Of a stretch of DNA of 64,000 nt, positions 597 to 26,032 are shown piece by piece. The notes under the pieces were generated by a model. That model saw only the letters and a list, made by a program, of their open reading frames with translations, was not told where the DNA came from and did no database searches. Numbering within the stretch: position 1 is the stretch's first letter; each line of letters opens with the position of its first letter. This DNA is from Escherichia coli (GTDB taxonomy: Bacteria > Pseudomonadota > Gammaproteobacteria > Enterobacterales > Enterobacteriaceae). The translations under genes were made by a program, and so were the position numbers. The DNA is taken from NCBI RefSeq assembly GCF_044324875.1, contig NZ_CP172188.1, one strand, 5' to 3'.

Positions 597-1022
597 TCAT
601 TCCGGCGTTGACTGGTTTTGAACGTAAGCCCTGAGTGTTTCAATCGTTGCTCCTCCGGTACTACATGCAAAGTAGGCTCTCGACCAAAGCAAGCCTGTTT
701 TGCTCTGTGTTCGTAAATGTGTGTTTTGTTGACGTAGCAGACGTGACGATACTGATTTCAAATTATTCACCATTACGCTGACTGCCAGCTTTGGCGGATA
801 GGCAACCAGTAGATGTACATGATCTGCTTCTCCATCCATTTCAAGAATTTCGCATTCAAGTTTTGCAGCAGCGGAACAAAAAGCTTCCCGTAGTTGCTCT
901 ATCATGCAGCCGTCAAAAAGTTTTCTGCGGTATTTTGTAGTGAAAATTAAATGCACAACGAGCTTACTCACGCTGTGACGTTTCCGAAGGAATCCCTCAA
1001 GGGATTCATGCTGTTCGCTCAA
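597..1022 (-). CDS. tnpA: IS200/IS605 family transposase TnpA (Y1 HUH transposase)
   Basis: 141 aa; HVHLLV (HuH) motif and the size typical of IS200 TnpA. Confidence 0.85.
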   Translation of the reverse strand: MSEQHESLEGFLRKRHSVSKLVVHLIFTTKYRRKLFDGCMIEQLREAFCSAAAKLECEILEMDGEADHVHLLVAYPPKLAVSVMVNNLKSVSSRLLRQQNTHLRTQSKTGLLWSRAYFACSTGGATIETLRAYVQNQSTPE

Positions 1023-1078
1023 TTGAAAAAACGCCTCAATTTGTTAAAATGATTGAATAATATCAATGAGCGCTGAGT

Positions 1079-2257
1079 ATGTTAAGAGCGACAAAAGTAC
1101 GCATATATCCCACTACTGAACAGGCTGAGTATCTCAATGCCCAGTTCGGTGCGGTACGTTTTGCGTACAATAAAGCTCTTCACATCAAAAAACATGCTTA
1201 CCAGCGATACGGGGTGAATTTAAGTCCGCGCAAAGATTTAAAGCCGTTGCTGTCTATAGCGAAGAAGTCCCGTAAGTATGCCTGGCTCAAAGAGTTTGAT
1301 TCAATGGCATTGCAACAGGCAGTAATTAATCTTGATGCGGCATTTTCCAACTTTTTTAATCCGAAGCTGAAAGCACGGTTCCCGACGTTTAAACGTAAAC
1401 ACGGGAGACAATCGAGCTATCACTGCACCGGAATCAAGGTGCTGGATGATGCCATTAAGATCCCTAAACTGAATCTGCCGATAAAGGCGCGTATACACCG
1501 TGTAATTACGGGAAAAGTAACGAGCATAACAATTACTCGCAATGCCGCTGGGGAATATCACGCATCCATCCTTTGTGATGACGGTATTCCCGCGCCAGAG
1601 AAACCCACGTATCTGGAAGAAGAAAAGATTACTGGTGTGGACATGGGATTAACAGATTATGCCATCAAATCGGATGGTAATAAGGTTGGTAATCCTCGTC
1701 ATCTCATCAATGCCAGTCGTAATCTGCGACGCAAACAAAAAGCGTTATCCCGCAAGCAAAAGGGAAGCGCGAACCGTAAAAAGGCCAGAATCCGTCTGGC
1801 AGCGTTACACGAACGGGTGGCTAATGCCCGTGCTGATTTTCAACACAAGCTCTCTCGTGCAATTGTTGACGAAAACCAAGCGGTAATTGTCGAGACGCTG
1901 AAAACAGCCAACATGATGAAAAACCACAATCTGGCAAGAGCGATAGGTGATGCAGGCTGGCATAGCTTCATCACAAAGCTGGAGTACAAGGCAGCGGAAA
2001 AAGGCGTTCACCTGGTAAAACTCGACCAGTGGTTTGCCAGTTCGAAAACGTGCCATTGTTGTGGTTACAAAATGCCGGAAATGCCGCTTCATAAACGCAT
2101 CTGGCGATGCCCTGAATGTGGAGCAGAGCACGACCGCGATATCAATGCGGCGCTCAATATCCGGCAAAAAGGAATACTGGAACTAAAGGCGGCGGGACTC
2201 GTCGTTTCTGTCCATGGAGGCCAGCGTAAATCCGTCGAACAGACGGTAGCGGCCTGA
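1079..2257 (+). CDS. tnpB: IS605-family TnpB (RuvC-like RNA-guided nuclease, OrfB)
   Basis: 392 aa; N-terminus MLRATKVRIYPT..., C-terminal zinc finger CHCCGY...CPECGAEHDRDINAALNI typical of TnpB. Confidence 0.85.
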   Translation: MLRATKVRIYPTTEQAEYLNAQFGAVRFAYNKALHIKKHAYQRYGVNLSPRKDLKPLLSIAKKSRKYAWLKEFDSMALQQAVINLDAAFSNFFNPKLKARFPTFKRKHGRQSSYHCTGIKVLDDAIKIPKLNLPIKARIHRVITGKVTSITITRNAAGEYHASILCDDGIPAPEKPTYLEEEKITGVDMGLTDYAIKSDGNKVGNPRHLINASRNLRRKQKALSRKQKGSANRKKARIRLAALHERVANARADFQHKLSRAIVDENQAVIVETLKTANMMKNHNLARAIGDAGWHSFITKLEYKAAEKGVHLVKLDQWFASSKTCHCCGYKMPEMPLHKRIWRCPECGAEHDRDINAALNIRQKGILELKAAGLVVSVHGGQRKSVEQTVAA

Positions 2258-2300
2258 GAAGTGGGAAGCCTCGCCCGACAGGGCGGGGAGCAGTCACATA
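2140..2300 (+). ncRNA. predicted omega-RNA (reRNA) region at the tnpB 3' end / IS right end
   Basis: Inferred from the known position of the TnpB guide RNA scaffold over the tnpB 3' end and right-end hairpin (2269-2289); not demonstrated from sequence alone. Confidence 0.3.
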
Positions 2301-2846
2301 ATTCATTGCGTCATTAGGTAGCGGATTAGTTGGTTCGGCATTTGCCAGGGATTGAGATAAACGCGTGATTAATTTGACCATTCTCCGCTGCCGGAGGTTG
2401 TATCCTTCAGCTAAAGACAGGTAACTGGAAAGGGTATTGCTTAAGCGGGCGCGAAGCTGATCCGTGCCGTGACATTCAATAGCAACATCACGTAACGCAT
2501 CGACCAGTTCACGGTAAAGATGCGCTGCCATTCTGCAATCTGTGTCAGATGGTGCTTCATAAATTACCGTCAACCCCAGTTTTTCAGCCAGAGCGTGTTC
2601 TGCACGTGCTCCTGCGGACACATCCCATCCCTTAAGCAGATAGATCGCATCAGCAGAACGCACCATTGCCAGGCAAATATCCATGTATTCACTCTGGCAA
2701 AGGCCACCAGGTAACACAGCTGGATTCAGAACGATATGCCCTTCAGACATCAGCTCGCTCGCTTTCGCATTAAACGCCGCACGGTTGTAGTCTGGATAAC
2801 CAGTCATCGGCCCCGCGATGTAAATTTTCAAAACACGTTTCACCAT
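2154..2846 (-). CDS. DUF4406 / nucleoside 2-deoxyribosyltransferase-like protein; 3' part reads into the IS605 right end
   Basis: N-terminus MVKRVLKIYIAGPMTGYPDYNRAAFNAKASELMSEGHIVLNPA matches the DUF4406 pattern; start ATG at 2846 overlaps the stop of the upstream small ORF (TGATG); the frame below ~2300 runs through the IS hairpin and the tnpB 3' end. Confidence 0.45.
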   Translation of the reverse strand: MVKRVLKIYIAGPMTGYPDYNRAAFNAKASELMSEGHIVLNPAVLPGGLCQSEYMDICLAMVRSADAIYLLKGWDVSAGARAEHALAEKLGLTVIYEAPSDTDCRMAAHLYRELVDALRDVAIECHGTDQLRARLSNTLSSYLSLAEGYNLRQRRMVKLITRLSQSLANAEPTNPLPNDAMNYVTAPRPVGRGFPLLRPLPSVRRIYAGLHGQKRRVPPPLVPVFLFAGY

Positions 2847-3001
2847 CAAAATTTCCCCAAAATCGTGACGCAAAACATAAGCACTGCGAAAAGCTCAATA
2901 CCAAGCTCAAGTAGCGCCAACGCCCCGAAAAACAACACATAGAACAGGCCAATCTCATTCACAGATGGCTGGTGGATCGCACTTAAAGCTATAAGCATCA
3001 T
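2846..3001 (-). CDS. small hydrophobic protein (51 aa)
   Basis: GGAGGA Shine-Dalgarno before ATGATG at ~3001/2998; MMLIALSAIHQPSVNEIGLFYVLFFGALALLELGIELFAVLMFCVTILGKF; stop overlaps the start of the downstream gene. Confidence 0.35.
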   Translation of the reverse strand: MMLIALSAIHQPSVNEIGLFYVLFFGALALLELGIELFAVLMFCVTILGKF

Positions 3002-3037
3002 GTCCTCCAAACAGTTATCAGGAATGATATTAATGTT

Positions 3038-3050
3038 TTGTGTTAGAAAA
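3038..3050 (+). promoter_or_regulatory. copy of dispersed motif TTGTGTTAGAAAA, ~70 bp upstream of the Ref-like gene
   Basis: One of at least nine intergenic occurrences (see findings). Confidence 0.35.
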
Positions 3051-3118
3051 TCAATTTTGAATATCTAACTGTTTTGATCAATCATAGAAAAATAGCTGAA
3101 AAGTAAGAGGCAGCCATC

Positions 3119-3697
3119 ATGCAGAAACAGAGCTATTGGGAGAAACAGAGACAAAAAGCCATGCAAAAATTGGCTGACCCAGCCTGGCGAGAGGAACAAA
3201 GGGCAAAGCGCCTTCAACAAGCTCAACGCCAGCAGCAGCGAGCGAGAGAAAAAGCCGCATCGCCTGAATATCGGCAAAAGAAAATTGAAAAAGCAAAGCA
3301 ATATGAACAGCGGAGAAAAGATAAAGCTGTATCCGCTCCGCCCAAAAAAACACGCACGTCACGCGGCCTGAAGGGCAGATCACTCACAGCCGATGAACGC
3401 CGGATACAGACCGCTATCGGTACTCTCCCCTGCATTGCCTGCCATATTCACGGGCAACATAGCCCAGTGGTATCCCTGCACCATATCTTCGGGAGAACGG
3501 CAGAGAACGCACATAAATATGTCCTCCCTTTGTGTAAATGGCACCACCAGTACGCAGCGCCAGCCGAGGTCCGAGAACAATATCCCTGGCTGGTCCCTGT
3601 TCATGCTGATGGAAAAATAGGCGGAAAAGCAGATTTCATACGGCACAATGCCGATGAAATGGCGTTGTATCAGATGGCGATTGAATTAATAAATTAG
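3119..3697 (+). CDS. Ref-family (DUF968-like) HNH-type nuclease-like protein
   Basis: 192 aa; basic low-complexity N-terminus then LPCIACHIHGQ...SLHHIFG...LPLCKWHH Cys/His motifs; GAGG Shine-Dalgarno. Confidence 0.5.
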   Translation: MQKQSYWEKQRQKAMQKLADPAWREEQRAKRLQQAQRQQQRAREKAASPEYRQKKIEKAKQYEQRRKDKAVSAPPKKTRTSRGLKGRSLTADERRIQTAIGTLPCIACHIHGQHSPVVSLHHIFGRTAENAHKYVLPLCKWHHQYAAPAEVREQYPWLVPVHADGKIGGKADFIRHNADEMALYQMAIELIN

Positions 3698-7607: not shown

Positions 7608-8363
7608 TTAACGCGTTTTTTCGCTGCTTTCCACTACCGGGGGATTTTTCCTCAGTGACTCTCCCTGAAGGACCACTCGGTGTGAGTTATGTACCAGTCT
7701 GTCCAGGATGGCATCTGCTGTTGTTGGGTTCTCCATCAGACCATGCCATTTATCTACCGGGAACTGGCTTACCACTATCGTGCTGCTTTGTCCGTAACGA
7801 TCCTCTATGAGCTCCAGAAGGTCATTACACTGGGCGTTACTTAACTGTTCCAGCCCCAGATCGTCCAGGATTAGAACCTGTATTTTTTGCAACTGTTTCA
7901 GATATTTCAGCCAGCTGCCATCAACACGTCCCTGAGCCAGTTGTTCCAGTAATCGCCCGGTTCTACAGTACCGGACGCTGTGTTTCTGTCGACATGCCTG
8001 TTCGCCCAGCGCATTGGCTATCCAGCTCTTGCCACATCCTGTCGGACCGGTTATCAGCAGGTTTTTCCTGTGGGTTATGTAGTGGCCGTTCAGCAGTTCT
8101 CTCATCTGTTCAGCCCGCAGACCTCTTGAGGCCGGATAGCGCAGCCCTTCCGGTGTTGCCTGGTATTTCAGGCCGGCATTTTTTCTCAACCGTGCCACAC
8201 GGCTGTTTTCCCTGCTCAGAAGCTCGTCATCAACCAGCAGCGTCAGCCTTTCCTCGAACGACAGTTCGTCGTAGGTCTGAGGCGTTTCCCGCTGCCGTAT
8301 CAGGCTCCCGGCCATCGCCGGGAGTTTCAGTTGGGTCAGTTTGTTTAACAGGTTATCACTCAT
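7608..8363 (-). CDS. istB: IS21-family transposition helper ATPase IstB
   Basis: Walker A GPTGCGKS, DExx-like LILDDLG; start set at MSDNLL with AAGGAA Shine-Dalgarno; the ORF track extends upstream to 8606. Confidence 0.85.
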   Translation of the reverse strand: MSDNLLNKLTQLKLPAMAGSLIRQRETPQTYDELSFEERLTLLVDDELLSRENSRVARLRKNAGLKYQATPEGLRYPASRGLRAEQMRELLNGHYITHRKNLLITGPTGCGKSWIANALGEQACRQKHSVRYCRTGRLLEQLAQGRVDGSWLKYLKQLQKIQVLILDDLGLEQLSNAQCNDLLELIEDRYGQSSTIVVSQFPVDKWHGLMENPTTADAILDRLVHNSHRVVLQGESLRKNPPVVESSEKTR

Positions 8364-8379
8364 ACTGTTGTTCCTTCTG

Positions 8380-9915
8380 TCAGTGGTAGTAGCCCGGACC
8401 ACGCAGGTTTTCATGCTCTGAAGCATATGCCGGATGTTGTTCGCCCTGGCGGGATAATGGAAGCTCCAGGTTCTCCCGATGGTGACGCAGCAGATTGTCG
8501 ATAAAGCGTCTGTCAGGGGCGTTATAGTGCAGGGCAACGTAACAGGCCTTTTCCAGCCGTTCCGGGCCGTATTTTTTCTGAAGTGCCAGCAGCCCCAGAA
8601 CTGCACGATAAGCCAGTTCCGGATGGGGTTTTGCCTTCAGCATGGATTCAACCACCCGGCCTGTGGACGGGCCCGTACGTTTTCCCTGCTCGATCAGGCG
8701 TTCCGGTGTCCATGTCCCGTGCTGCCGGTGGCGCTCTGGCATGTGAAGCGGATTGGTTGTGTGTTTATATTCATGTGTGCTGCGCGGATGTTGCGCCACA
8801 CACTGCCCCTTGTGCCAGAGCTGTACCACCGACTGCCCCGCCTTCAGTGACAGACGCTGACCGACCAGTTCGTGTGGAACGGAGTACCAGTGACGGGCAT
8901 ATTCAACGTGGTAGTCAGGGCCAACCTTCACAGCTTTGTATTCCGTGTATTCATAAGGTGCCAGAGGCAGCGGAGAGAGTGCTGGCGCATCCAGTATGCG
9001 GAAGCGTTCTGCACGGGTTTGATTGCCGTACCCCTTCATTGGCCGGTTATTCATGTCTGTCAGTAACTCCCTAAGGCGCGCATTCAGCGCCCTGAGCGTG
9101 TGGAAGGTTTCATTACGGATGCGGGCAAGAAGCCATCGTTCAACGATGAGGACGCCGTTTTCTGCTTTTGGTTTATCTTTAGGTTTGCGTGGTCGGGCCG
9201 GGATGATAACCGTGCCATAGTGCTCAGCCAGTGCCTGATAACTGTCGTTGATGACAGGCTCATATCGATCGGCCTTTTTCACTGCGCTTCTGAGGTTATC
9301 GGGGATGAGCAGCTTCGGTACGCCGCCCAGGAAGGTCAGGCAACGGCTGTGGGCATTTAACCATGACATCATGTCCTGACCTTCGCACGCTTCAACGTAG
9401 GTATAGTTGGACGCCCCCATTACGGCCACGAAGATTGCCACGCGGCGTATCTCACCGGTGTCCGGATTAATAACAGGAACCGTAGGACCACAGAAGTCGA
9501 TAAAAAGCTTTTCGCCGGCACGATGCTCCTGGCGCATGGAGAGACGTCGCGTTTTTTTCCACTCCCGGTAGCAACGGCAGAAGTGCGAGTATCCCATCGC
9601 TTTGTTACCCGCCTGTGCCTTGTATTCCATCCACAACAGTTGCCGCGTCACACCTGGTTTTCTCATTTCCGTATCGAAGTACAACATGTCAGGCATTACA
9701 AGCTCTGATGCAAAGGTGTCTTTGGGCGGAAAAATGAGTTTCTCCAGCGTGTCATGGGATATATCAGCAGGTAATGGCCATGACAGAGAAGAGGCTTTGA
9801 AGCGGGCAAGAACCTCAAAAACGGTTGAGGCGCTGATGTGTAACGTCAGTCCGATACAACGGTTAGTCAGCTTCTTGTCGAACTTGAGCTGAAGGATCTT
9901 AAAACAGGTTTCCAT
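8380..9915 (-). CDS. istA: IS21-family transposase IstA
   Basis: ~511 aa from METCF... (AGGAG Shine-Dalgarno); N-terminal HTH and a DDE-type core; the ORF track extends to 10026. Confidence 0.85.
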   Translation of the reverse strand: METCFKILQLKFDKKLTNRCIGLTLHISASTVFEVLARFKASSLSWPLPADISHDTLEKLIFPPKDTFASELVMPDMLYFDTEMRKPGVTRQLLWMEYKAQAGNKAMGYSHFCRCYREWKKTRRLSMRQEHRAGEKLFIDFCGPTVPVINPDTGEIRRVAIFVAVMGASNYTYVEACEGQDMMSWLNAHSRCLTFLGGVPKLLIPDNLRSAVKKADRYEPVINDSYQALAEHYGTVIIPARPRKPKDKPKAENGVLIVERWLLARIRNETFHTLRALNARLRELLTDMNNRPMKGYGNQTRAERFRILDAPALSPLPLAPYEYTEYKAVKVGPDYHVEYARHWYSVPHELVGQRLSLKAGQSVVQLWHKGQCVAQHPRSTHEYKHTTNPLHMPERHRQHGTWTPERLIEQGKRTGPSTGRVVESMLKAKPHPELAYRAVLGLLALQKKYGPERLEKACYVALHYNAPDRRFIDNLLRHHRENLELPLSRQGEQHPAYASEHENLRGPGYYH

Positions 9916-10307
9916 AGTGCTCCTGGATTTTCTCTTTCTGGACATTGACGTCTCCACTGGTTTAAACACGGCAATGGAGACTGTGGTGAAAAGAGTTAAT
10001 TCCCGGAGTGACTGGCAGGATGCCAATCAATGATCGGAAGCATGCCAAATCGTGATCGATTGTGATGCCAAACTGTGATCGGAGATGGATGCCAAATCAT
10101 GATCGATTCGAATGCCAAACTGCGATCGATTCAGATGCCATTTTGCAGCCAAATTTCTGTCAAAAAATAAAATCCACAAAAAGTGGTTGACACTATTTTG
10201 GAAATCACAAACTGCACATAATCCATCGCGCTAACGGCTCCCGTTGAAGGTTCTTTTGACGATTAACTTTCAGCCGAAGCGCGGTAGGGAGTCATAACGC
10301 CAAAGCA

Positions 10308-14753: not shown

Positions 14754-15092
14754 TCAGGCTGCTTTTTTATTCAGGTTCCGCTGAGAAATAAATTTTTCAG
14801 CAGTATTGATACGACTTAACTCTTCCTGAACGCGCATGTCATTTTCGACTTCCCACAGGTCTACTGCGGTCTGGAGATTAATCCAAAAATCTACAGAAGT
14901 ATCGAATGCTTTTGCCAGGCGATATGCCATATCCATCGTTAGCTTACGATTATTATTAACAAGAGCACTTACGGTGTTACGATGAACATGAAGTATTTCT
15001 GCTAACTCGTTGATCTTCAGCTCTAACGGCTCCAGGTATTCGTACAGCAGGATATCACCTACGGTCGTCGGTTTTCTGGTTGCCTGTTTCAT
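14754..15092 (-). CDS. higA: HigA-family antitoxin (HTH), second TA pair
   Basis: KPTTVGDILLYEYLEPLELKINELAEILHVHRNTVSALVNNNRKLT...FWINLQTAVDLW matches the HigA antidote pattern. Confidence 0.7.
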   Translation of the reverse strand: MKQATRKPTTVGDILLYEYLEPLELKINELAEILHVHRNTVSALVNNNRKLTMDMAYRLAKAFDTSVDFWINLQTAVDLWEVENDMRVQEELSRINTAEKFISQRNLNKKAA

Positions 15093-15162
15093 TTTTTGCC
15101 CTTACTAGCGTGCGTATTAAGTGGACTCTGGTCAGAACCCGGTCCGTAACCGGGTATCTGTT

Positions 15163-15465
15163 TTAGTATTTGTGAGGGTCGAGATACAAGTCCTCGGCCT
15201 TTCCGTTAACCCACTTAAAAATTAACCTATATTGCTTATTCACCCTTACTGATGAATAGCCATTTAGCTTCCCTGACAGTTCCTCATACCGATTACCTGG
15301 TGGTGATCTTAAATCCTTACAGGTAGTTGCGGCATTGATAATGTCCAACTTCCGTGACAATGTCATATGAATATCAGGAGGTATCTTTCTATGTGGTGTT
15401 GAAAATTCAAAAAAATCATCAAGCCACGCATCCCTGAAATCCTTTATGTTAATTTTTTTGGTCAT
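15163..15465 (-). CDS. higB: HigB-like killer toxin, second TA pair
   Basis: ...DLRSPPGNRYEELSGKLNGYSSVRVNKQYRLIFKWVNGKAEDLYLDPHKY resembles the plasmid-killer (HigB) family; lies immediately upstream of the antitoxin. Confidence 0.65.
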   Translation of the reverse strand: MTKKINIKDFRDAWLDDFFEFSTPHRKIPPDIHMTLSRKLDIINAATTCKDLRSPPGNRYEELSGKLNGYSSVRVNKQYRLIFKWVNGKAEDLYLDPHKY

Positions 15466-18876: not shown

Positions 18877-19782
18877 ATGAGATCAGTCGCTTTCAAAAAC
18901 ATCTTCATCTATCGTCTTTCACGTGAAGTTAACTGGAGTGCCGCAGAAGTATCCGATGCTCTTAGCAAATTCGTGTTTACTCCTTGCGGTTCTCAGGACA
19001 CAGCTAAAGTCGGTTGGACACCTGTTCTTGGTGACAACCTCACCCATGAATACCAGGGTTTTCTGCTAATACAGCATAAGCGAGAAGAAAAAATTCTCCC
19101 CTCGCAGGTGCTCAAGGAAGAGTTGCAGAAAAAAGTCCTGAAACTCGAAGAAGAGCAAGCCCGCAAGCTGAAGAAAACGGAAAGAGACAGTCTTAAAGAT
19201 GAAGTCCTGCATTCCCTTTTGCCTCGCGCGTTCACGAGAAAATCACTCGCCAAAATCCTGATCGACCGCAGCAACCATCTGGTATTCGTTGAGGCAAGCA
19301 GCGCCAAAAAGGCAGAGGACCAGCTGGCTTTATTGCGAAAATCGCTCGGCAGCCTGCCTGTCATTCCATTCACACCACGCGAACCGCTGGAAATTACAAT
19401 GACCGAGTGGTTTAAAAACGGCTTCCCTGCCGGATTTACAGCAGGTGAAGACGCCACATTAAAGGGTCTGCTCGATAATGGTGGTGCCGTTCGCTGCAAC
19501 AAAGTTGATCTACAGTCCGACGAGATTATGTCTCACATTGAGGCGGGGAAAGTAGCTACGACCGTTGCAATTAACTGGATGGAACGCGCGTCGTTCAGAG
19601 TCAACGATGATATGAGTATCAAAGCCCTGACATTCTGTGATGATCTCTATGACCAGAACGACGATATCGACCGGGAGGATGTAGCACAACGATTTGATGC
19701 TGATTTCGTGCTCTTTACGGGCGAATTATCTGCACTGTTTAACGCGCTGGTGGAGGCCATTGGCGGTGAAGCAGAACGATAA
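18877..19782 (+). CDS. rdgC: recombination-associated protein RdgC homologue
   Basis: 301 aa; near-colinear similarity to E. coli RdgC as I recall it ([35 protein letters not shown]..., [26 protein letters not shown]). Confidence 0.85.
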
Positions 19783-19798
19783 TAACCGACAGCTTGTT

Positions 19799-20446
19799 GT
19801 GAGTCTTTGTGATTTTACGGGGGCAATGGTTGCCCCCTGGCTGGAATACGGTGTCGATGCCGCTATCGTCGATCCACAGCACTTATCGACCAGTGACGAG
19901 CGGATGCAATCAGGTGCCGTTCTGACGCGTATTAGTGCGATCATCGATAGCGATGAAGTATACGCTTTTCTTCGTAAGAATTTGCAGCGCATCGTGTTTC
20001 TGGCCGGGTTCCCACCGTGTACTGACCTGGCTGTTTCCGGCGCGCGCTGGTTTTCTGACAAGGCTAATAAAGATCCGGTTTTCCAGTTCAAAGCAATGCA
20101 GGTTGTCTGGCAGTGTTACGACATTGCAAAGATGATTGGTTGCCCGTACATGATTGAAAACCCGGTCAGCCAAATATCGACATTCTGGCGTAAACCTGAT
20201 CACATCTTCCATCCTTACCACTTCACTGCATATTGCAAGGAAGACAATTACACCAAAAAAACATGCCTCTGGAGCGGGCAAGGCTTTGTCATGCCTGATG
20301 CCCTAATGGACGAATCATTAGGCAAGCCAGATAACAGAATCCATACCGCGCCACCTGGACCTGAAAGGGCTAATTTTCGAAGTGCTACTCCGCATGGATT
20401 CGCAAAGGCAGTTTTCGAAGCGAATAAGGGGGTGCTCTATGAGTAA
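19799..20446 (+). CDS. DNA cytosine-C5 methyltransferase-like protein (short; start uncertain)
   Basis: LCDFTGAM (motif I-like), GFPPC (PC catalytic motif-like), MIENPV (ENV-like); candidate starts GTG 19799 or ATG 19826; the frame is open from 19694. Confidence 0.4.
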   Translation: MSLCDFTGAMVAPWLEYGVDAAIVDPQHLSTSDERMQSGAVLTRISAIIDSDEVYAFLRKNLQRIVFLAGFPPCTDLAVSGARWFSDKANKDPVFQFKAMQVVWQCYDIAKMIGCPYMIENPVSQISTFWRKPDHIFHPYHFTAYCKEDNYTKKTCLWSGQGFVMPDALMDESLGKPDNRIHTAPPGPERANFRSATPHGFAKAVFEANKGVLYE

Positions 20447-21344
20447 ATCTATAGCAAGCATAGCCATAGAAAAACAGGATACGATGGCTGAAATTAGCTA
20501 TATGCGCACCATTCGGACTCAGGATGAATATGAGCGCCCGATCTTCAAATGGGTAGGCGGTAAATTCTCAGAGTTGCCTACAGTGCTTGAGCATCTACCA
20601 CACGGCAAGCGGTTAATAGAACCATTCGTTGGTGGCGGTTCCGTATTTACAAATGCAGGATTTCGCCACAACCTGCTTAATGATATTAACGGTGACCTGA
20701 TTAACTTCTATCAGACATTGCAGCGAGAAGGACATTCGCTCGTCACGCTGTCATATAGTTTTTTCCAAAATTACAACAACGCTGACGCTTACCTCGAAGT
20801 GCGTGAGGCATTTAACAGAGGAAAGTATGACCAGCTACATCATGCTGCCGCCTTTTTGTACCTTAATCGGCACTGTTTTAATGGCGTAACGCGGTACAAC
20901 CAAAATGGCGAGTTCAACGTGGGGTATGGCAAATACAAAGCGCCCTACTTCCCACATGCAGAGATGGAGGCATTTTTGGCTGATGACGTACTCAAAAACA
21001 CGTCCTTTGTATCAGGTGACTTTGCTGGCGTCATCGAGGCGGCTGGTGAAGGCGATGTGATTTTTTGCGATCCGCCGTATGAACCGCTGCCGGATACAGA
21101 AGGGTTTACCAGTTATTCAGGAAATAGCTTCCGTTTCGACGAACAGAAACGGCTGGTATCTCTATTGGTGGAAGCCCACCAGCGCGGCGCTAAGGTAGTG
21201 ATAACAAATAGTGGTGCGCCAAACATCCGTGAACTATATGAAGGAAACGGGTTTAAAGTACATCATATGGCAGCCAGACGGTCGGTTTCCTGCAAGGCGT
21301 CAACACGTGTAGTTGCTAACGATATAATTGCAATAATGAAGTAA
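20439..21344 (+). CDS. dam: DNA adenine methyltransferase (Dam-like, N6-adenine)
   Basis: FKWVGGK, EPFVGGGSVF, DPPY motifs; AAGGGGG Shine-Dalgarno; start overlaps the upstream stop. Confidence 0.8.
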   Translation: MSKSIASIAIEKQDTMAEISYMRTIRTQDEYERPIFKWVGGKFSELPTVLEHLPHGKRLIEPFVGGGSVFTNAGFRHNLLNDINGDLINFYQTLQREGHSLVTLSYSFFQNYNNADAYLEVREAFNRGKYDQLHHAAAFLYLNRHCFNGVTRYNQNGEFNVGYGKYKAPYFPHAEMEAFLADDVLKNTSFVSGDFAGVIEAAGEGDVIFCDPPYEPLPDTEGFTSYSGNSFRFDEQKRLVSLLVEAHQRGAKVVITNSGAPNIRELYEGNGFKVHHMAARRSVSCKASTRVVANDIIAIMK

Positions 21345-21372
21345 AAAACGCCGCAGTAGCGGCGTTTACTTT
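21343..21372. terminator. bidirectional rho-independent terminator (mainly serving glnS on the minus strand)
   Basis: aacgccgc-agta-gcggcgtt with T-runs on the minus-strand side. Confidence 0.55.
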
Positions 21373-21392
21373 TTCATGTGGCGAAATACCTA

Positions 21393-23054
21393 TTAACCTA
21401 ACTTCGCCCAGGTATCACGCAGCCCAACGGTGCGGTTAAATACCGGTTTTTCCGCCGTAGAATGGCGGCTATCGAGGCAGAAGTAACCTTCACGCTCAAA
21501 CTGGAATGCTTTACCCGCAACCGCATCTTTCAGCGACGGTTCAGCAAAGCCCTGTTTGATCACCAGCGATTCCGGGTTAATCACCGACAGGAAATCATCC
21601 GCAGCACCTGGGTTAGGCACGCTGAACAGACGATCGTACAGGCGGATTTCAACCGGCAGCGCATGTGCCGCGCTCACCCAGTGAATAACGCCTTTCACTT
21701 TACGACCATCTGCCGGATCTTTGCTTAAGGTGTCGGCGTCATAAGTACAGAAGATGGTGGTGATATTGCCTTCGGCATCTTTCTCCACGCGTTCAGCCTT
21801 AATGACGTAAGCATTACGCAGACGCACTTCTTTACCCAGCACCAGACGTTTGTACTGCTTGTTAGCTTCTTCGCGGAAATCGGCGCGGTCGATCCAAATC
21901 TCACCGCTAAACGGCACCTGACGGCTACCCATTTCCGGTTTGTTCGGATGGTTCGGCATGGTGACCATTTCGCCTTCGCCCTGGTAGTTTTCGATAACCA
22001 GTTTCACCGGATCGATAACCGCCATTGCGCGCGGCGCATTTTCGTTGAGATCTTCACGGATGCAGGATTCCAGCGACGCCATCTCAATGGTGTTGTCCTG
22101 CTTGGTCACGCCGATGCGTTTGCAGAACTCACGAATAGAAGCCGCAGTGTAACCACGACGACGCAGACCGGAAATGGTCGGCATACGCGGGTCATCCCAG
22201 CCTTCAACGTGTTTGTCGGTCACCAGCAGGTTCAGCTTACGCTTGGACATCACGGTGTATTCCAGATTCAGGCGCGAGAATTCGTACTGGCGCGGGTGAA
22301 CAGGAATGGTGATGTTGTCCAGCACCCAGTCGTACAGGCGACGGTTGTCCTGGAACTCAAGCGTACACAGAGAGTGCGTAATACCTTCCAGCGCATCGCT
22401 GATGCAATGGGTGAAGTCGTACATCGGGTAGATGCACCACTTGTTGCCAGTCTGGTGGTGTTCAGCAAATTTAATGCGGTACAGCACCGGATCGCGCATT
22501 ACGATAAATGGCGACGCCATGTCGATTTTCGCACGCAGGCAGGCTTTACCTTCTTCAAAACCACCGGCACGCATTTTTTCGAACAGCGCCAGGTTCTCTT
22601 CAACGCTGCGATCGCGGTACGGGCTGTTTTTACCCGGCTGCGTCAGGGTGCCGCGGTATTCGCGGATCTGTTCCGGCGTCAGTTCGTCAACATACGCCAG
22701 GCCTTTGTTGATCAGTTCAACAGCATAGGCGTGGAGCTGATCAAAATAATCGGAGGAGTAACGGATGTTGCCAGACCAGTGAAAACCTAACCATTCAACG
22801 TCGTTTTTAATCGACTCGACGTACTCGATATCTTCTTTTACCGGGTTAGTGTCGTCGAAACGCAGGTTGCACTGGCCTTTATAGTCCTGGGCGATCCCGA
22901 AGTTCAGGCAGATAGATTTCGCATGACCAATATGCAGATAGCCATTCGGTTCCGGCGGGAAACGGGTATGTACTGTGGTGTGCTTACCACTGGCCAGATC
23001 TTCATCGATGATCTGACGAATAAAGTTAGTCGGGCGGGCTTCTGCCTCACTCAT
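21393..23054 (-). CDS. glnS: glutamine--tRNA ligase (GlnRS)
   Basis: 553 aa, colinear with E. coli GlnS over the whole length as I recall it (HIGH motif, VMSKR motif); C-terminus ...WAKLG. Confidence 0.95.
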
Positions 23055-23224
23055 TGTGGATTCCTCAAAGCGTAAACAACGTATAACAGCGTATGATCTT
23101 ATAAGCCGAATAGGCTGACAACCACTAGTTGATTAGAAATTGCTTTCTATCGTTATTTCAATAATGAGCTTTTTCATTAAGCCCACTTTTGCGCATAAGT
23201 AAATTAATGACAAATGGTACACAA

Positions 23225-23289
23225 TTGGAACCAAAAAGGATGTAAAGGTGCACCAAATTAGTGGTGTATTGGTGCACCTTTGGTTCAAG
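23225..23289. promoter_or_regulatory. palindromic partition-site-like element downstream of the parA/parG operon
   Basis: TTGGAACCA ... AAAGGTGCACCAA-12 bp-TTGGTGCACCTTT ... GGTTCAAG; related 9-mers recur upstream of parA (24270-24480). Confidence 0.4.
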
Positions 23290-23322
23290 ACTTTTTAAGT
23301 TCTAAAACCAACCTGAAAGACT

Positions 23323-23610
23323 TTATTTTGCTTCCTCAGACTCCGCTAACATGAGGATAGCATGGCGGATCATATTCAATTTGCTACGATTATGCTTTTT
23401 ACTTAACGCATCAAGTACCTGGTACTCGTATTCATTGAAACCAACACGAATAGATTTAAAATCACGTGGAGCGTCCTTATCGAGCACTTTGTTGTCTTCT
23501 GGTTGCTCACCCGGCACCAAATCAGCCTTACTTGCAAAATCCTCAATTCGGCGTTCAAGATCGGGGTCTTTTACTTCGGGGGCTTTTACCGATTTACGAG
23601 GCTTAATCAC
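23323..23610 (-). CDS. small partition protein (ParG-like, second gene of the ParA operon)
   Basis: 95 aa, directly downstream of and overlapping the Walker-type parA; C-terminus ...LNMIRHAILMLAESEE consistent with a ribbon-helix-helix-type centromere binder. Confidence 0.6.
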   Translation of the reverse strand: MIKPRKSVKAPEVKDPDLERRIEDFASKADLVPGEQPEDNKVLDKDAPRDFKSIRVGFNEYEYQVLDALSKKHNRSKLNMIRHAILMLAESEEAK

Positions 23611-24244
23611 TTAATAACTCCTTAACCAACATCTGGATTTCACCTTTAGCTTTCCCGTTGTCCATCTCAACAACGCCCTTCCCTTCAGCCATGCAATCGC
23701 GGTAAACCTTACGATCACGAATGATGGTTTTCAGCAACTTCAGTTGCGGATATTCAGCCAGGTACTCTTTGGCCTCATTGGTTTCATTCACAACCGGATT
23801 GGATGGGGCCATTGTTAAGACTGCGAACGCCTTAATGCTAGGATTAGGCATCAGGTCCAAAGCCTCTTCAAACACTTCAACAAAGTGTGCCAGCGTGTCT
23901 AAATCTGGTTGAGATGGTCTGAATGGGACCAACACAATATCTGCAGCGGTTATGCCTGTACGCATCTCTTTGCTATCGCGCCCGGCTGTATCAACAACTA
24001 CAAATTCATAACGCTTATCCAGATCGAGAAGTGTTTCTCGAATATTACCAAACTTCTGGACACAATGAATTACAGGAGAAACCTCTGCCGTGTTACGGTC
24101 AGCGGCCCAGCGGGCAGCTGTTCCTTGCTTGTCTGCATCTAGTAACACTACATCCTTATTTTCGCGGGCAAGCTCCGCACAGATGTTTACGCTTGTGGTT
24201 GATTTTCCACAGCCACCTTTTTGGCTGACTACCAATATAATCAT
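23603..24244 (-). CDS. parA: ParA-family partition ATPase (small, type Ib-like)
   Basis: KGGCGKST deviant Walker A; 213 aa. Confidence 0.8.
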   Translation of the reverse strand: MIILVVSQKGGCGKSTTSVNICAELARENKDVVLLDADKQGTAARWAADRNTAEVSPVIHCVQKFGNIRETLLDLDKRYEFVVVDTAGRDSKEMRTGITAADIVLVPFRPSQPDLDTLAHFVEVFEEALDLMPNPSIKAFAVLTMAPSNPVVNETNEAKEYLAEYPQLKLLKTIIRDRKVYRDCMAEGKGVVEMDNGKAKGEIQMLVKELLSD

Positions 24245-24529: not shown

Positions 24530-24901
24530 TTAATCAGGGAGTGAGTTTGCCAAATTCTGAGCAGAGCGGCTTTTCGGAACGCCTGGTTTTTTTACATCCT
24601 CTGAGACAGAGGTTTTTCCTTCAGTAGGTTCCCGAACTTCATGCGAAATTTCAAGAAACGAAACCAGCATTTTTCTGATCACTTCAGAGCTATTATCACC
24701 GGATAAAAGCGATGCCAACATGGGAGGTAATCTGCTATCAACCTCGCCAAGAGCGATACCTGCAAGCATCGCAGTGCGCACCATATCATTGCGATCACTT
24801 AATGGATGGGCCTCAATTTTTGCCACAGCATATTGCTCACTGGCGTAAGCGTTAAGATCTGAACGAAGATAAAACATTATTTTTCGACGTTCTTTAGACA
24901 T
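24530..24901 (-). CDS. parR: ParR/StbB-like centromere-binding protein
   Basis: 123 aa directly downstream of parM; similar in size and N-terminal character to plasmid R1 ParR. Confidence 0.6.
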   Translation of the reverse strand: MSKERRKIMFYLRSDLNAYASEQYAVAKIEAHPLSDRNDMVRTAMLAGIALGEVDSRLPPMLASLLSGDNSSEVIRKMLVSFLEISHEVREPTEGKTSVSEDVKKPGVPKSRSAQNLANSLPD

Positions 24902-24911
24902 GGCAACCTCA

Positions 24912-25871
24912 TCAACCGATAGATTTTAGACCATATACAAGAGCAAGTTGTGGATCATCAGCAACGAAAAACCTATCGTCACGAATGTTTACCTGCTCAC
25001 GGATAGCATCAGCAACAAGCGGCGCGCCGCCACCAATTACCATAACATGTGTGTATCCTTTGAAATCACTGATCACATCCAGTACGCGTGTACGGAGTCG
25101 CTCTATGCTTGACGAAATGGCTTTCTTAACATCATCAATAGCAGACGGATCGTTAATATTGTCGGTCAGATAATCCTCATCATCTCGATTAATGATTAAT
25201 TGATCGACGTTATAATTAGAGGTTTCGGTATTAGCTTTTGCAAGTGCCTGTCTGACCTCTTTAGTTACCAGCGAAACGCCGAGATTAGAATCGCCAAATA
25301 CGCGAGAAACGGCGGTCATTTGCCCGGCAACCATCGACACATCCAGAGTAGTCCCGCCAAGATCAACAATAAGCACAGAATGCGCTGGCACAAGGCTGTC
25401 GCACAGACCGATCCCTGCGGGTATTGACTCCGGGCGCACAGTCACTTTTTTGATAGTAAAAACCTGACCTTTGTTAAGGGTGACTGGTCGCATCAGGCTG
25501 GCCTTTTTCCGCTCAATATTTTTCATGTTGTATTGTGCGTCGTCGTCATAAAACTCTGCCAGTGGCAACGTGACTACTATTTCCACTTCTTGAGGCTCAA
25601 TGCCACTTGTAAGCAGGGCATGATGAACAGCAAGCACATTAAGCGGGCTGTATTGCCATTCAACGTTATTCGTTGGCAGAGCATCCGGCGAGATCAAGTC
25701 ATATGAATATTTTTCGTCATCAATGATGTAGTTAAACGTTTTTCCTGCGCCAAATGTGGCGGACCATCCACGTTTAAAACTGTTCGGGCAGATATGGGTT
25801 CGAGTTTCCCCGTCTTGTTCCCACAGCATTTTGATATTGGTAGAACCATCGTCGATAAAAATGCGCATCAT
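24912..25871 (-). CDS. parM: ParM/StbA actin-like plasmid segregation ATPase
   Basis: MMRIFIDDGSTNIKM..., WQY..NV.AVHHALLTSG, ESIPAG, IVDLGGTTLDVS, GYTHVMVIGGGA: colinear with R1 ParM as I recall it; start at MMRIF. Confidence 0.85.
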   Translation of the reverse strand: MMRIFIDDGSTNIKMLWEQDGETRTHICPNSFKRGWSATFGAGKTFNYIIDDEKYSYDLISPDALPTNNVEWQYSPLNVLAVHHALLTSGIEPQEVEIVVTLPLAEFYDDDAQYNMKNIERKKASLMRPVTLNKGQVFTIKKVTVRPESIPAGIGLCDSLVPAHSVLIVDLGGTTLDVSMVAGQMTAVSRVFGDSNLGVSLVTKEVRQALAKANTETSNYNVDQLIINRDDEDYLTDNINDPSAIDDVKKAISSSIERLRTRVLDVISDFKGYTHVMVIGGGAPLVADAIREQVNIRDDRFFVADDPQLALVYGLKSIG

Positions 25872-25964
25872 ATTGCTCCACTTCTGAGACACATTTGAGA
25901 AAGAATTGAATCTTATATGAGAAAACAAAATAAAACCAGAAGTTGAGAGAGCAAAAAGCACCAG

Positions 25965-26032
25965 ATTTGAGACAAACCAGAGACAAACCAGAGACAAACT
26001 AGAGACACACTAGAGACAAGTATGAGAAACAA
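25965..26032. repeat. parC-like centromere iterons upstream of parM
   Basis: Five to six tandem ~11-bp units GAGACAAACCA / GAGACAAACTA / GAGACACACTA / GAGACAAGTAT. Confidence 0.6.

Follow-up and report, generated by a model that had tools for sequence, protein, structure and literature searches.

The 64,000-nucleotide (nt) stretch of Escherichia coli contig NZ_CP172188.1 (assembly GCF_044324875.1) analysed here, below called the window, belongs to a phage-plasmid related to Escherichia phage D6 and carries a second glnS gene, encoding glutamine--tRNA ligase (GlnRS), between a phage DNA methylase gene, dmt, and a partition (par) operon of the ParA type. The coding sequence occupies positions 21393..23054 on the minus strand and consists of an ATG start and 553 codons plus stop, as given by the open reading frame (ORF) listing and the translation. 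Judged from its sequence, it is a complete and intact GlnRS gene of the host type, and the enzyme is predicted to be a normal and active-looking one.

The product matches the NCBIfam equivalog TIGR00440 over model positions 1-524 of 524 with 1069.1 bits, the curated cut-off being 425.8 bits, and its residues 1-553 align with residues 1-553 of chain A in the solved E. coli GlnRS structure 1o0b (1296 bits), the alignment being colinear and including the anticodon-binding beta-barrel domains. Both class I motifs, the HIGH at residues 40-43 and the VMSKR form of KMSKS, are intact and the same as in the K-12 enzyme. Relative to the chromosomal GlnS of K-12, which was translated from the aligned DNA, the protein differs by the substitutions V97I, I112V and V552L and by a missing C-terminal Glu (AKVGE* has become AKLG*), and of these Ile97 and Val112 are the residues natural to the Citrobacter youngae GlnRS. 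A complete gene, nearly identical to E. coli GlnS and with an altered C-terminus, is also what had been described in an earlier reading of this DNA made without database searches (the sequence-only reading), and that description is borne out. The G+C content at third codon positions of glnS (0.61) is the highest among all 60 large ORFs of the window, against a median of 0.46, and 15 of its 15 glutamine codons are CAG, so that the composition of the gene still looks chromosomal. An antisense ORF of 280 amino acids within glnS (21948-22790, plus strand), which is likewise found in other copies, for example in pF16EC0589-1, is most likely a by-product of codon bias on the sense strand.

The similarity to Escherichia chromosomes extends beyond the coding sequence to the whole glnS transcription unit, comprising the promoter, the 5′ untranslated region, the coding sequence and the terminator, which spans 21345..23142 on the minus strand as delimited by megablast, manual alignments and terminator homology. 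In the megablast search of 5426 complete E. coli genomes, the set to which all E. coli genome counts below refer, chromosomal homology is confined to positions 21397-23122 or 23142 at 96.3-97.6% identity, while the homology of the terminator carries the downstream end of the unit to approximately 21345, for a total of about 1.8 kb. Upstream, the homology ends 10-25 nt above the -35 element. The predicted native sigma-70 promoter (23093..23121, minus strand; 9 of 12 matches in a promoter scan) has a -35 element TTGTCA at 23121-23116, a 17-nt spacer and a -10 element GATCAT at 23098-23093, and it aligns with the chromosomal glnS promoter; the promoter spacer of the plasmid copies has private changes (CCTATTCGGC versus CCTGTCCCGC). 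A Dam site, GATC, is located at 23098-23095 within the -10 hexamer. The Shine-Dalgarno motif GAGGA (23062..23066, minus strand), found by inspection 7 nt upstream of the ATG, is the same in the chromosomal copies.

At the other end of the unit, a terminator scan places an intrinsic hairpin, AAACGCCGC-TACT-GCGGCGTTT, at 21346..21367 on both strands, followed by six T residues in the direction of glnS and with folding energies of -18.7 and -19.4 kcal/mol (z -5.4 and -3.6). Since the hairpin adjoins the stop codon of dmt (21342-21344), it would be able to terminate both convergent genes. On the chromosomes of three E. coli strains, E. albertii, Citrobacter youngae and a divergent Escherichia, the hairpin 3′ of glnS has two stem arms identical to these, which indicates that the terminator that the sequence-only reading had assigned to glnS is the native one, captured along with the gene. 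In Escherichia chromosomes, repetitive extragenic palindromic (REP) elements separate the stop codon from the hairpin, whereas none are found there in the plasmids or in Citrobacter; the number of REP elements at this position differs by strain. The surroundings of chromosomal glnS vary also otherwise, as seen in the genomes viewed, which included E. coli O25:H4 and strain ET650: a DeoR/GlpR regulator takes the place of nagE upstream in the E. coli O25:H4 (ST131-type) genome, and an IS1 is found beside the gene in one strain. A junction inside the last codons combined with a phage-derived terminator was considered and dropped, as the same hairpin stems lie 3′ of glnS in the six Escherichia and Citrobacter genomes; the C-terminal change is instead a matter of local divergence with a 4-nt length difference.

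Between the captured unit and the small par gene lies a 180-bp spacer (23143..23322, minus strand) which is particular to the glnS-bearing plasmids. In sensitive blastn searches it adjoins glnS on plasmids in 74 of the 5426 genomes and is on the chromosome in none, the spacer being without a match on any E. coli chromosome, and it is missing in relatives that lack glnS. It contains an inverted repeat with 13-bp stems at approximately 23244-23281 around the palindrome GGTGCACC (-24 kcal/mol, z -5.0), which may be the terminator of the par operon or a protein-binding site.

The arrangement is not private to the window. The 2.7-kb region around glnS is 98.3% identical to that of phage D6, with the same junctions, and 18.7 kb of the window runs colinear with D6 except for patches where modules have been replaced. 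The D6 annotation lists at the same place, between dmt and a ParA-like gene, a 'glutamine--tRNA ligase, similar to E. coli GlnS'. In PLSDB, 98 non-mobilizable plasmids of about 90 kb match at least 80% of the query, mostly at 98-99% identity and approximately five of them at 89-95%, with E. coli, Salmonella and Shigella as the hosts named, and approximately 18 IMG/VR viral contigs also contain this glnS. The Salmonella plasmid pSa1423-90k (NZ_MK356557.1; 89.3% identity) was set aside, as small indels by the dozen are scattered over its glnS and flanking DNA and it looks like an unpolished long-read assembly, the 89% identity of which is not biological. Among the complete E. coli genomes, the full arrangement is present in 69 (approximately 1.3%) and the adjoining par region in 93, in all 93 on plasmids and in none on a chromosome; the D6-like lineage is kept there as an extrachromosomal replicon.

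The presence of glnS in D6-like phage-plasmids is already known, having been published in 2018 and 2019 (Gilcrease and Casjens 2018, given as the source for the phage D6 gene in PMC6799933). An aminoacyl-tRNA synthetase gene on a phage-plasmid, which the sequence-only reading found unusual, is so for phages in general but not for the D6-like lineage, where the gene is on record (PMC6799933). Later work on the function of the plasmid glnS was not found in the literature searched. What is added here are the exact boundaries, which appear to enclose an entire transcription unit from its own Dam-sensitive promoter to its own terminator, both native to glnS, the fact that some relatives have no glnS, the retention of the chromosomal copy by the carriers, and clear evidence of ongoing exchange between the two, including a tract of E. 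albertii type. Five other IMG/VR contigs encode GlnRS homologues at 85, 75, 55, 55 and 48% identity, the last one inside a 159-kb contig; as there are almost no PHROG matches among the neighbouring ORFs, these could be phage genes as well as host flanks.

The same backbone occurs without glnS in at least seven plasmids, among them pPSS-10_3, pEC361_3, an E. marmotae plasmid and that of S. dysenteriae 204/96, where approximately 140 bp separate dmt from the small par gene. The segment absent from them corresponds to 21343-23322, from the stop codon of dmt to the stop codon of the small par gene, which is exactly the span marked out in the sequence-only reading. Among the 93 E. coli genomes with the par region, some 20-24, about a quarter, are without glnS, so a statement that the gene occurs 'in all D6-like genomes' would be too strong, and the element does not need the gene. 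In the glnS-less relatives, the terminator hairpin after dmt is another one, and an alignment with four of them revealed neither an alignable remnant of an insertion footprint nor a target duplication. Likewise, no partially deleted glnS remnants were found among approximately 130 plasmid matches. Identical ParA proteins are encoded on both glnS-plus and glnS-minus plasmids, which indicates that modules are reshuffled among the backbones.

As for the origin of the gene, the most informative part is its first 540 nt, which is the least exchanged one. Here the identity of the plasmid alleles to five E. coli alleles is 95-96.5%, whereas the latter have 98.3-100% identity among themselves and 97.2-97.6% to a divergent Escherichia genome, and nine sites are fixed in eight of eight plasmid alleles and absent in seven of seven Escherichia chromosomal alleles. 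Over the whole coding sequence, sites private to the plasmids include nt 105, 246, 261, 333-336, 348, 1654 and 1659. Together with the common junctions, this divergence suggests either one old capture or an Escherichia-like donor outside the sampled E. coli. With the same junctions in all copies, across plasmids of E. coli, Salmonella and Shigella, the capture appears to have been a single event, and the recent capture that the sequence-only reading had put forward does not agree with junctions shared by the plasmids of three genera or with a 5′ part so distant from E. coli alleles. The Escherichia chromosomal alleles among the contig matches listed are from E. albertii and from one divergent record labelled E. 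coli; a Salmonella or E. fergusonii allele that could point to the donor lineage is not among these matches.

The gene has remained intact throughout the lineage. In a sample of 21 plasmid or viral-contig copies, 20 different nucleotide sequences encode 13 different proteins, none of the 21 has an internal stop, and of 130 segregating sites only 16 fall in codons that vary in the amino acid. The ratio of nonsynonymous to synonymous polymorphism (pN/pS) is 0.027 for these alleles versus 0.015 for the five chromosomal ones. A single frameshifted copy was encountered in pF16EC0589-1 (CP088384.1), where an A5 run has become A6 near nt 1604 of the coding sequence, the ORF is cut to 539 amino acids and glnS is not annotated; the frameshift may be real or a homopolymer sequencing error. 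The window allele differs from that of D6 at 38 of 1659 nt and is without the Q106K, L466Q and D510E substitutions of some copies. The divergence between the window and D6 amounts to 1.8-3.6% inside glnS versus 0.6% in the adjoining 500-nt bins, and far larger module replacements are found elsewhere in the backbone of the two.

The plasmid alleles are mosaics, with tracts that match chromosomal alleles, and the clearest of these tracts are five. In pAPEC201603, nt 36-663 of the coding sequence are identical to the K-12 chromosomal allele at 628 of 628 positions, with all 20 discriminating sites in agreement (p = 2e-7). D6 itself has a K-12-type tract at nt 1020-1572 (p = 2e-10), pSL26_91 an O157-type tract at nt 717-1572 (p = 4e-11) and p13ZX28 a tract of E. 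coli chromosomal type, as in strain YZLc23-1, at nt 1071-1503 (p = 2e-7). Finally, pZ1323HEC (NZ_CP148392.1, pZ1323HEC0010-2) has an E. albertii-type tract at nt 1287-1437, supported by 13 of 14 discriminating sites (p = 2e-7). The p-values given are those before correction for the approximately 1000-3500 segments tried, and all five tracts withstand that correction; the window's own allele offers weak evidence of a tract in common with strain WP8 (p = 1e-4, uncorrected). The mosaics imply that the plasmid copy recombines repeatedly with the resident chromosomal glnS, and the tract of E. albertii type in pZ1323HEC, an E. coli plasmid, implies that the lineage of this plasmid was at one time hosted by E. 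albertii or a relative, where the recombination took place. Through such repeated exchange, the plasmids are also able to move parts of glnS from one strain or species to another.

The chromosomal partner for this exchange is retained in the carriers. The chromosomal glnS locus is covered to at least 80% in 5423 of the 5426 genomes, and the 5492 full-length match records are made up of 5423 chromosomes and 69 plasmids, which fits all 69 carriers keeping the chromosomal locus. Integrated forms at glnS were seen in none of the 93 E. coli genomes with the par region and in none of the 74 with the spacer.

Of the genes flanking the unit, the convergent dmt (20382..21344, plus strand) encodes a Dam-family DNA adenine methylase, assigned by its TIGR00571 match (249 bits) and the D6 annotation and homologous to the C-terminal half of P1 dmt. 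In the window and in D6, the methylase region (19694-21344, plus strand) consists of two overlapping ORFs of 250 and 320 amino acids, the upstream 250-residue one without an NCBIfam match, whereas in relatives the methylase is one long Dam-family gene, with a coding sequence of 2565 nt in pPSS-10_3 and at least 2289 nt in p13ZX28. On the upstream side of glnS, and transcribed the same way, the gene at 23603-24244 (minus strand) encodes a ParA-family ATPase, which by its match to NF041546 ParA_partition (162.8 bits, under the 180-bit cut-off) and the D6 annotation clearly appears to belong to the ParA superfamily. It is overlapped by a 95-residue ORF (23323-23610, minus strand), a putative partner of ParA. 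The sequence-only reading had named this pair a ParA/ParG operon. In partition operons of the ParF/ParG type (type Ib), a small Walker-type ParA ATPase is paired with ParG, a ribbon-helix-helix protein that binds the centromere; the 95-residue ORF has no Pfam family even at E = 10 and no NCBIfam family, and only its position and size fit ParG.

A second partition system adjoins the ParA operon at 24530-25997 (minus strand), with a ParM/StbA-like protein of 361 amino acids and a 123-residue partner. It is 14-24% divergent from D6 while its neighbours differ by less than 1%, and it is therefore a replaced module. Further away, a toxin-antitoxin pair of the HigB/HigA type (14754-15465, minus strand) comprises a 100-residue toxin (PHROG 3066) and a 112-residue helix-turn-helix antitoxin (PHROG 1381), corresponding to orf70 and orf71 of D6. 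An IS21-family element at 7608-10026 (minus strand), with a 548-residue transposase (PHROG 1157) followed by a 332-residue DnaC-like helper (PHROG 50), coincides with a GC-rich patch at 8-9 kb (GC 0.56). There are no tRNA genes within the window.

Taken jointly, these observations are, in our estimation with somewhat better than even probability, accounted for by a single capture of the whole glnS unit, which would since have been dispensable cargo, or a 'moron', that adds to the supply of GlnRS and is kept by selection and exchange. An ancestor of the D6-like P1-family phage-plasmids would have captured one complete unit from an Escherichia chromosome, placed between the phage dmt and the ParA partition operon, where the gene would be transcribed from its own sigma-70 promoter and ended by its own terminator. 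With both of these present, a lysogen has two glnS genes, and lytic replication of the element would supply many more copies per cell. The plasmid glnS is most likely a functional second dose of GlnRS, and the dosage effect that the sequence-only reading had listed is thus the most plausible of its proposals. The sequences show the identity, boundaries, single origin and intactness of the gene, its mosaic exchange, the extrachromosomal state of the element and the chromosomal copy kept by carriers, whereas the expression of the plasmid copy, its Dam sensitivity and any benefit for fitness are inferred. The chromosomal glnS promoter is repressed by Dam via GATC sites (Plumbridge and Soll 1987, as cited in PMC11741368), which RNA-seq confirms, glnS expression being up by 1.08 log2 in a dam deletion (PMC11741368). 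By analogy, the GATC in the -10 element of the plasmid copy should allow approximately two-fold more transcription on unmethylated or hemimethylated DNA, such as that freshly injected or rapidly replicating. Purifying selection and homologous exchange with the glnS of the resident chromosome, by gene conversion or double crossover, would then keep the gene intact, and the exchange would make the mosaics.

Several points weigh against such a role. First, the glnS-less quarter of the carriers indicates that these plasmids thrive without the gene. Next, glutamine makes up 4.15% of the residues in the ORFs of the element, with no enrichment, so the composition shows no special demand for glutaminyl-tRNA. 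In addition, the repeated exchange with chromosomes means that the low pN/pS is no clean proof of selection on the plasmid copy, as it may partly represent variation that was imported already purified on the chromosome. Extra enzyme is also not automatically good, as strong over-production of GlnRS, described by Swanson and colleagues in 1988, reportedly leads to mischarging. Finally, where PMC6799933 deals with the glnS of D6-like plasmid prophages, it presents it as a cargo gene, with no role assigned there.

The same points leave room for a serious rival, namely that glnS is a neutral passenger of no benefit, cheap to carry at a tolerant intergenic site and repaired by conversion from chromosomal glnS. 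We regard this as possible but less likely. The mosaic tracts prove that conversion from chromosomal alleles does occur, relatives without the gene are common, and the proteins of the element are not enriched in glutamine. However, the conversion tracts are patchy and cover part of the gene only, yet there are 20 distinct alleles without nonsense mutations or a believable frameshift, and no partially deleted remnant is found among the approximately 130 plasmid matches. The promoter, the C-terminus and the 5′ haplotype, all private to the plasmids, are moreover kept across plasmids with par modules that are 12-22% apart.

An extension of the favoured reading in the opposite direction would have the extra glnS selected within the life cycle of the element itself, either as a source of a Dam-gated burst of GlnRS from unmethylated, rapidly replicating or newly injected DNA or as a decoy or addiction device built on an essential synthetase. 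In both versions, the lasting homology of the gene with the chromosome would turn the D6-like phage-plasmids into shuttles of glnS allele segments between Escherichia species, as the E. albertii-type tract suggests. This more specific proposal we consider rather unlikely.

Dependence of the host on the plasmid copy, as in the essential-gene addiction proposed for cysS of pBT1, would make loss of the plasmid lethal. The idea has been raised for the plasmid glnS in PMC6799933, glnS is essential (Table 1 of PMC3632133), and maintenance functions are stacked beside it, with two partition systems and the HigBA-type toxin-antitoxin. Nevertheless, it appears improbable: the chromosomal locus is present in all but three of the genomes, in numbers that at the level of gene presence fit all 69 carriers, and the mosaic alleles require an intact co-resident chromosomal copy.

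A role in conflict, where extra or altered GlnRS would titrate or bypass a toxin or defence system aimed at GlnRS or tRNA-Gln, was among the proposals of the sequence-only reading, and over-production of GltX, which rescues HipA toxicity, offers an analogy. Circumstantially, glnS is kept on a phage genome beside a methylase and functions of the anti-restriction type, and the C-terminus and two residues of its product differ from the host enzyme. On the other hand, a toxin aimed at GlnRS is not known to us, and the literature searched did not reveal one. The substitutions are conservative, two of them being wild-type residues of Citrobacter, and large tracts of the gene have often been replaced by ordinary chromosomal sequence, which argues against a specialised variant enzyme and leaves little probability for a counter-measure.

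Even less probable is that the gene serves as a portable patch of homology, a 1.75-kb segment for recombination into the chromosome at glnS in integration, Hfr-like mobilisation or specialised transduction. That the plasmid gene recombines with chromosomal glnS is demonstrated, and a single crossover would presumably leave two functional glnS copies and hence be harmless. Still, with the par region never chromosomal in 93 genomes and the spacer never chromosomal either, no stable integrated form is seen. That the arrangement is an assembly chimera or a chromosomal junction, for which nothing speaks except the higher GC of the segment, can be dismissed, since the same junctions in D6, approximately 98 independent complete plasmids and the IMG/VR contigs rule out the mis-assembly against which the sequence-only reading had advised checking, and since the par region and the arrangement are never chromosomal, as that reading had also held.

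The plasmid glnS bears on several wider matters. Few temperate phages and plasmids have genes for aminoacyl-tRNA synthetases, the purpose of which is mostly unclear, and the D6-type glnS is a widespread and intact example. Phage D6 grows on E. coli K-12, so that the plasmid gene is open to study there, and the approximately 50 nt differences between the plasmid and chromosomal copies make allele-specific expression, Dam control, dispensability and addiction testable. The mosaic alleles constitute a natural record of gene conversion between plasmid and chromosome at an essential housekeeping gene, which matters for typing schemes and phylogenies that take glnS as single-copy and vertically inherited.

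Among known systems, the closest are the glnS of phage D6 itself (orf62, YP_009914739) and those of pYU39_89 and pSL26_91 from Salmonella Typhimurium ST213, which are the same gene at the same place with the same junctions, and the difference from them is allelic only. The chromosomal E. coli glnS, located between nagE and chiP, has in common with the plasmid copy the GATC in the -10 element, the ribosome-binding site, 553 of 554 codons and the terminator stem, but differs in its 3′ REP elements, the AKVGE* end, the promoter spacer, the flanking genes and the haplotype of the 5′ 540 nt. The cysS of pBT1 in Salmonella Typhimurium ST313 strain D23580 is likewise a second, plasmid-borne copy of an essential aminoacyl-tRNA synthetase gene; there, according to the account of Canals et al. 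2019 (PMC6333337) in PMC6799933, expression of the chromosomal cysS is strongly reduced and the plasmid-borne gene takes its place, whereas in the carriers of the D6-like plasmids the chromosomal glnS locus is kept. The glnS unit resembles phage morons in being an autonomous unit between two modules, with its own promoter and terminator, dispensable and of a base composition unlike its surroundings, but while typical morons are accessory or virulence genes, glnS duplicates a housekeeping gene of the host and is thereby open to homologous exchange. Finally, mupA, which encodes a mupirocin-resistant IleRS, is another case of a second synthetase on mobile elements. Synthetases of the mupA type are, however, divergent, inhibitor-insensitive variants, whereas the plasmid GlnRS is 99.5% identical to the host enzyme, for which to our knowledge there is no natural inhibitor.

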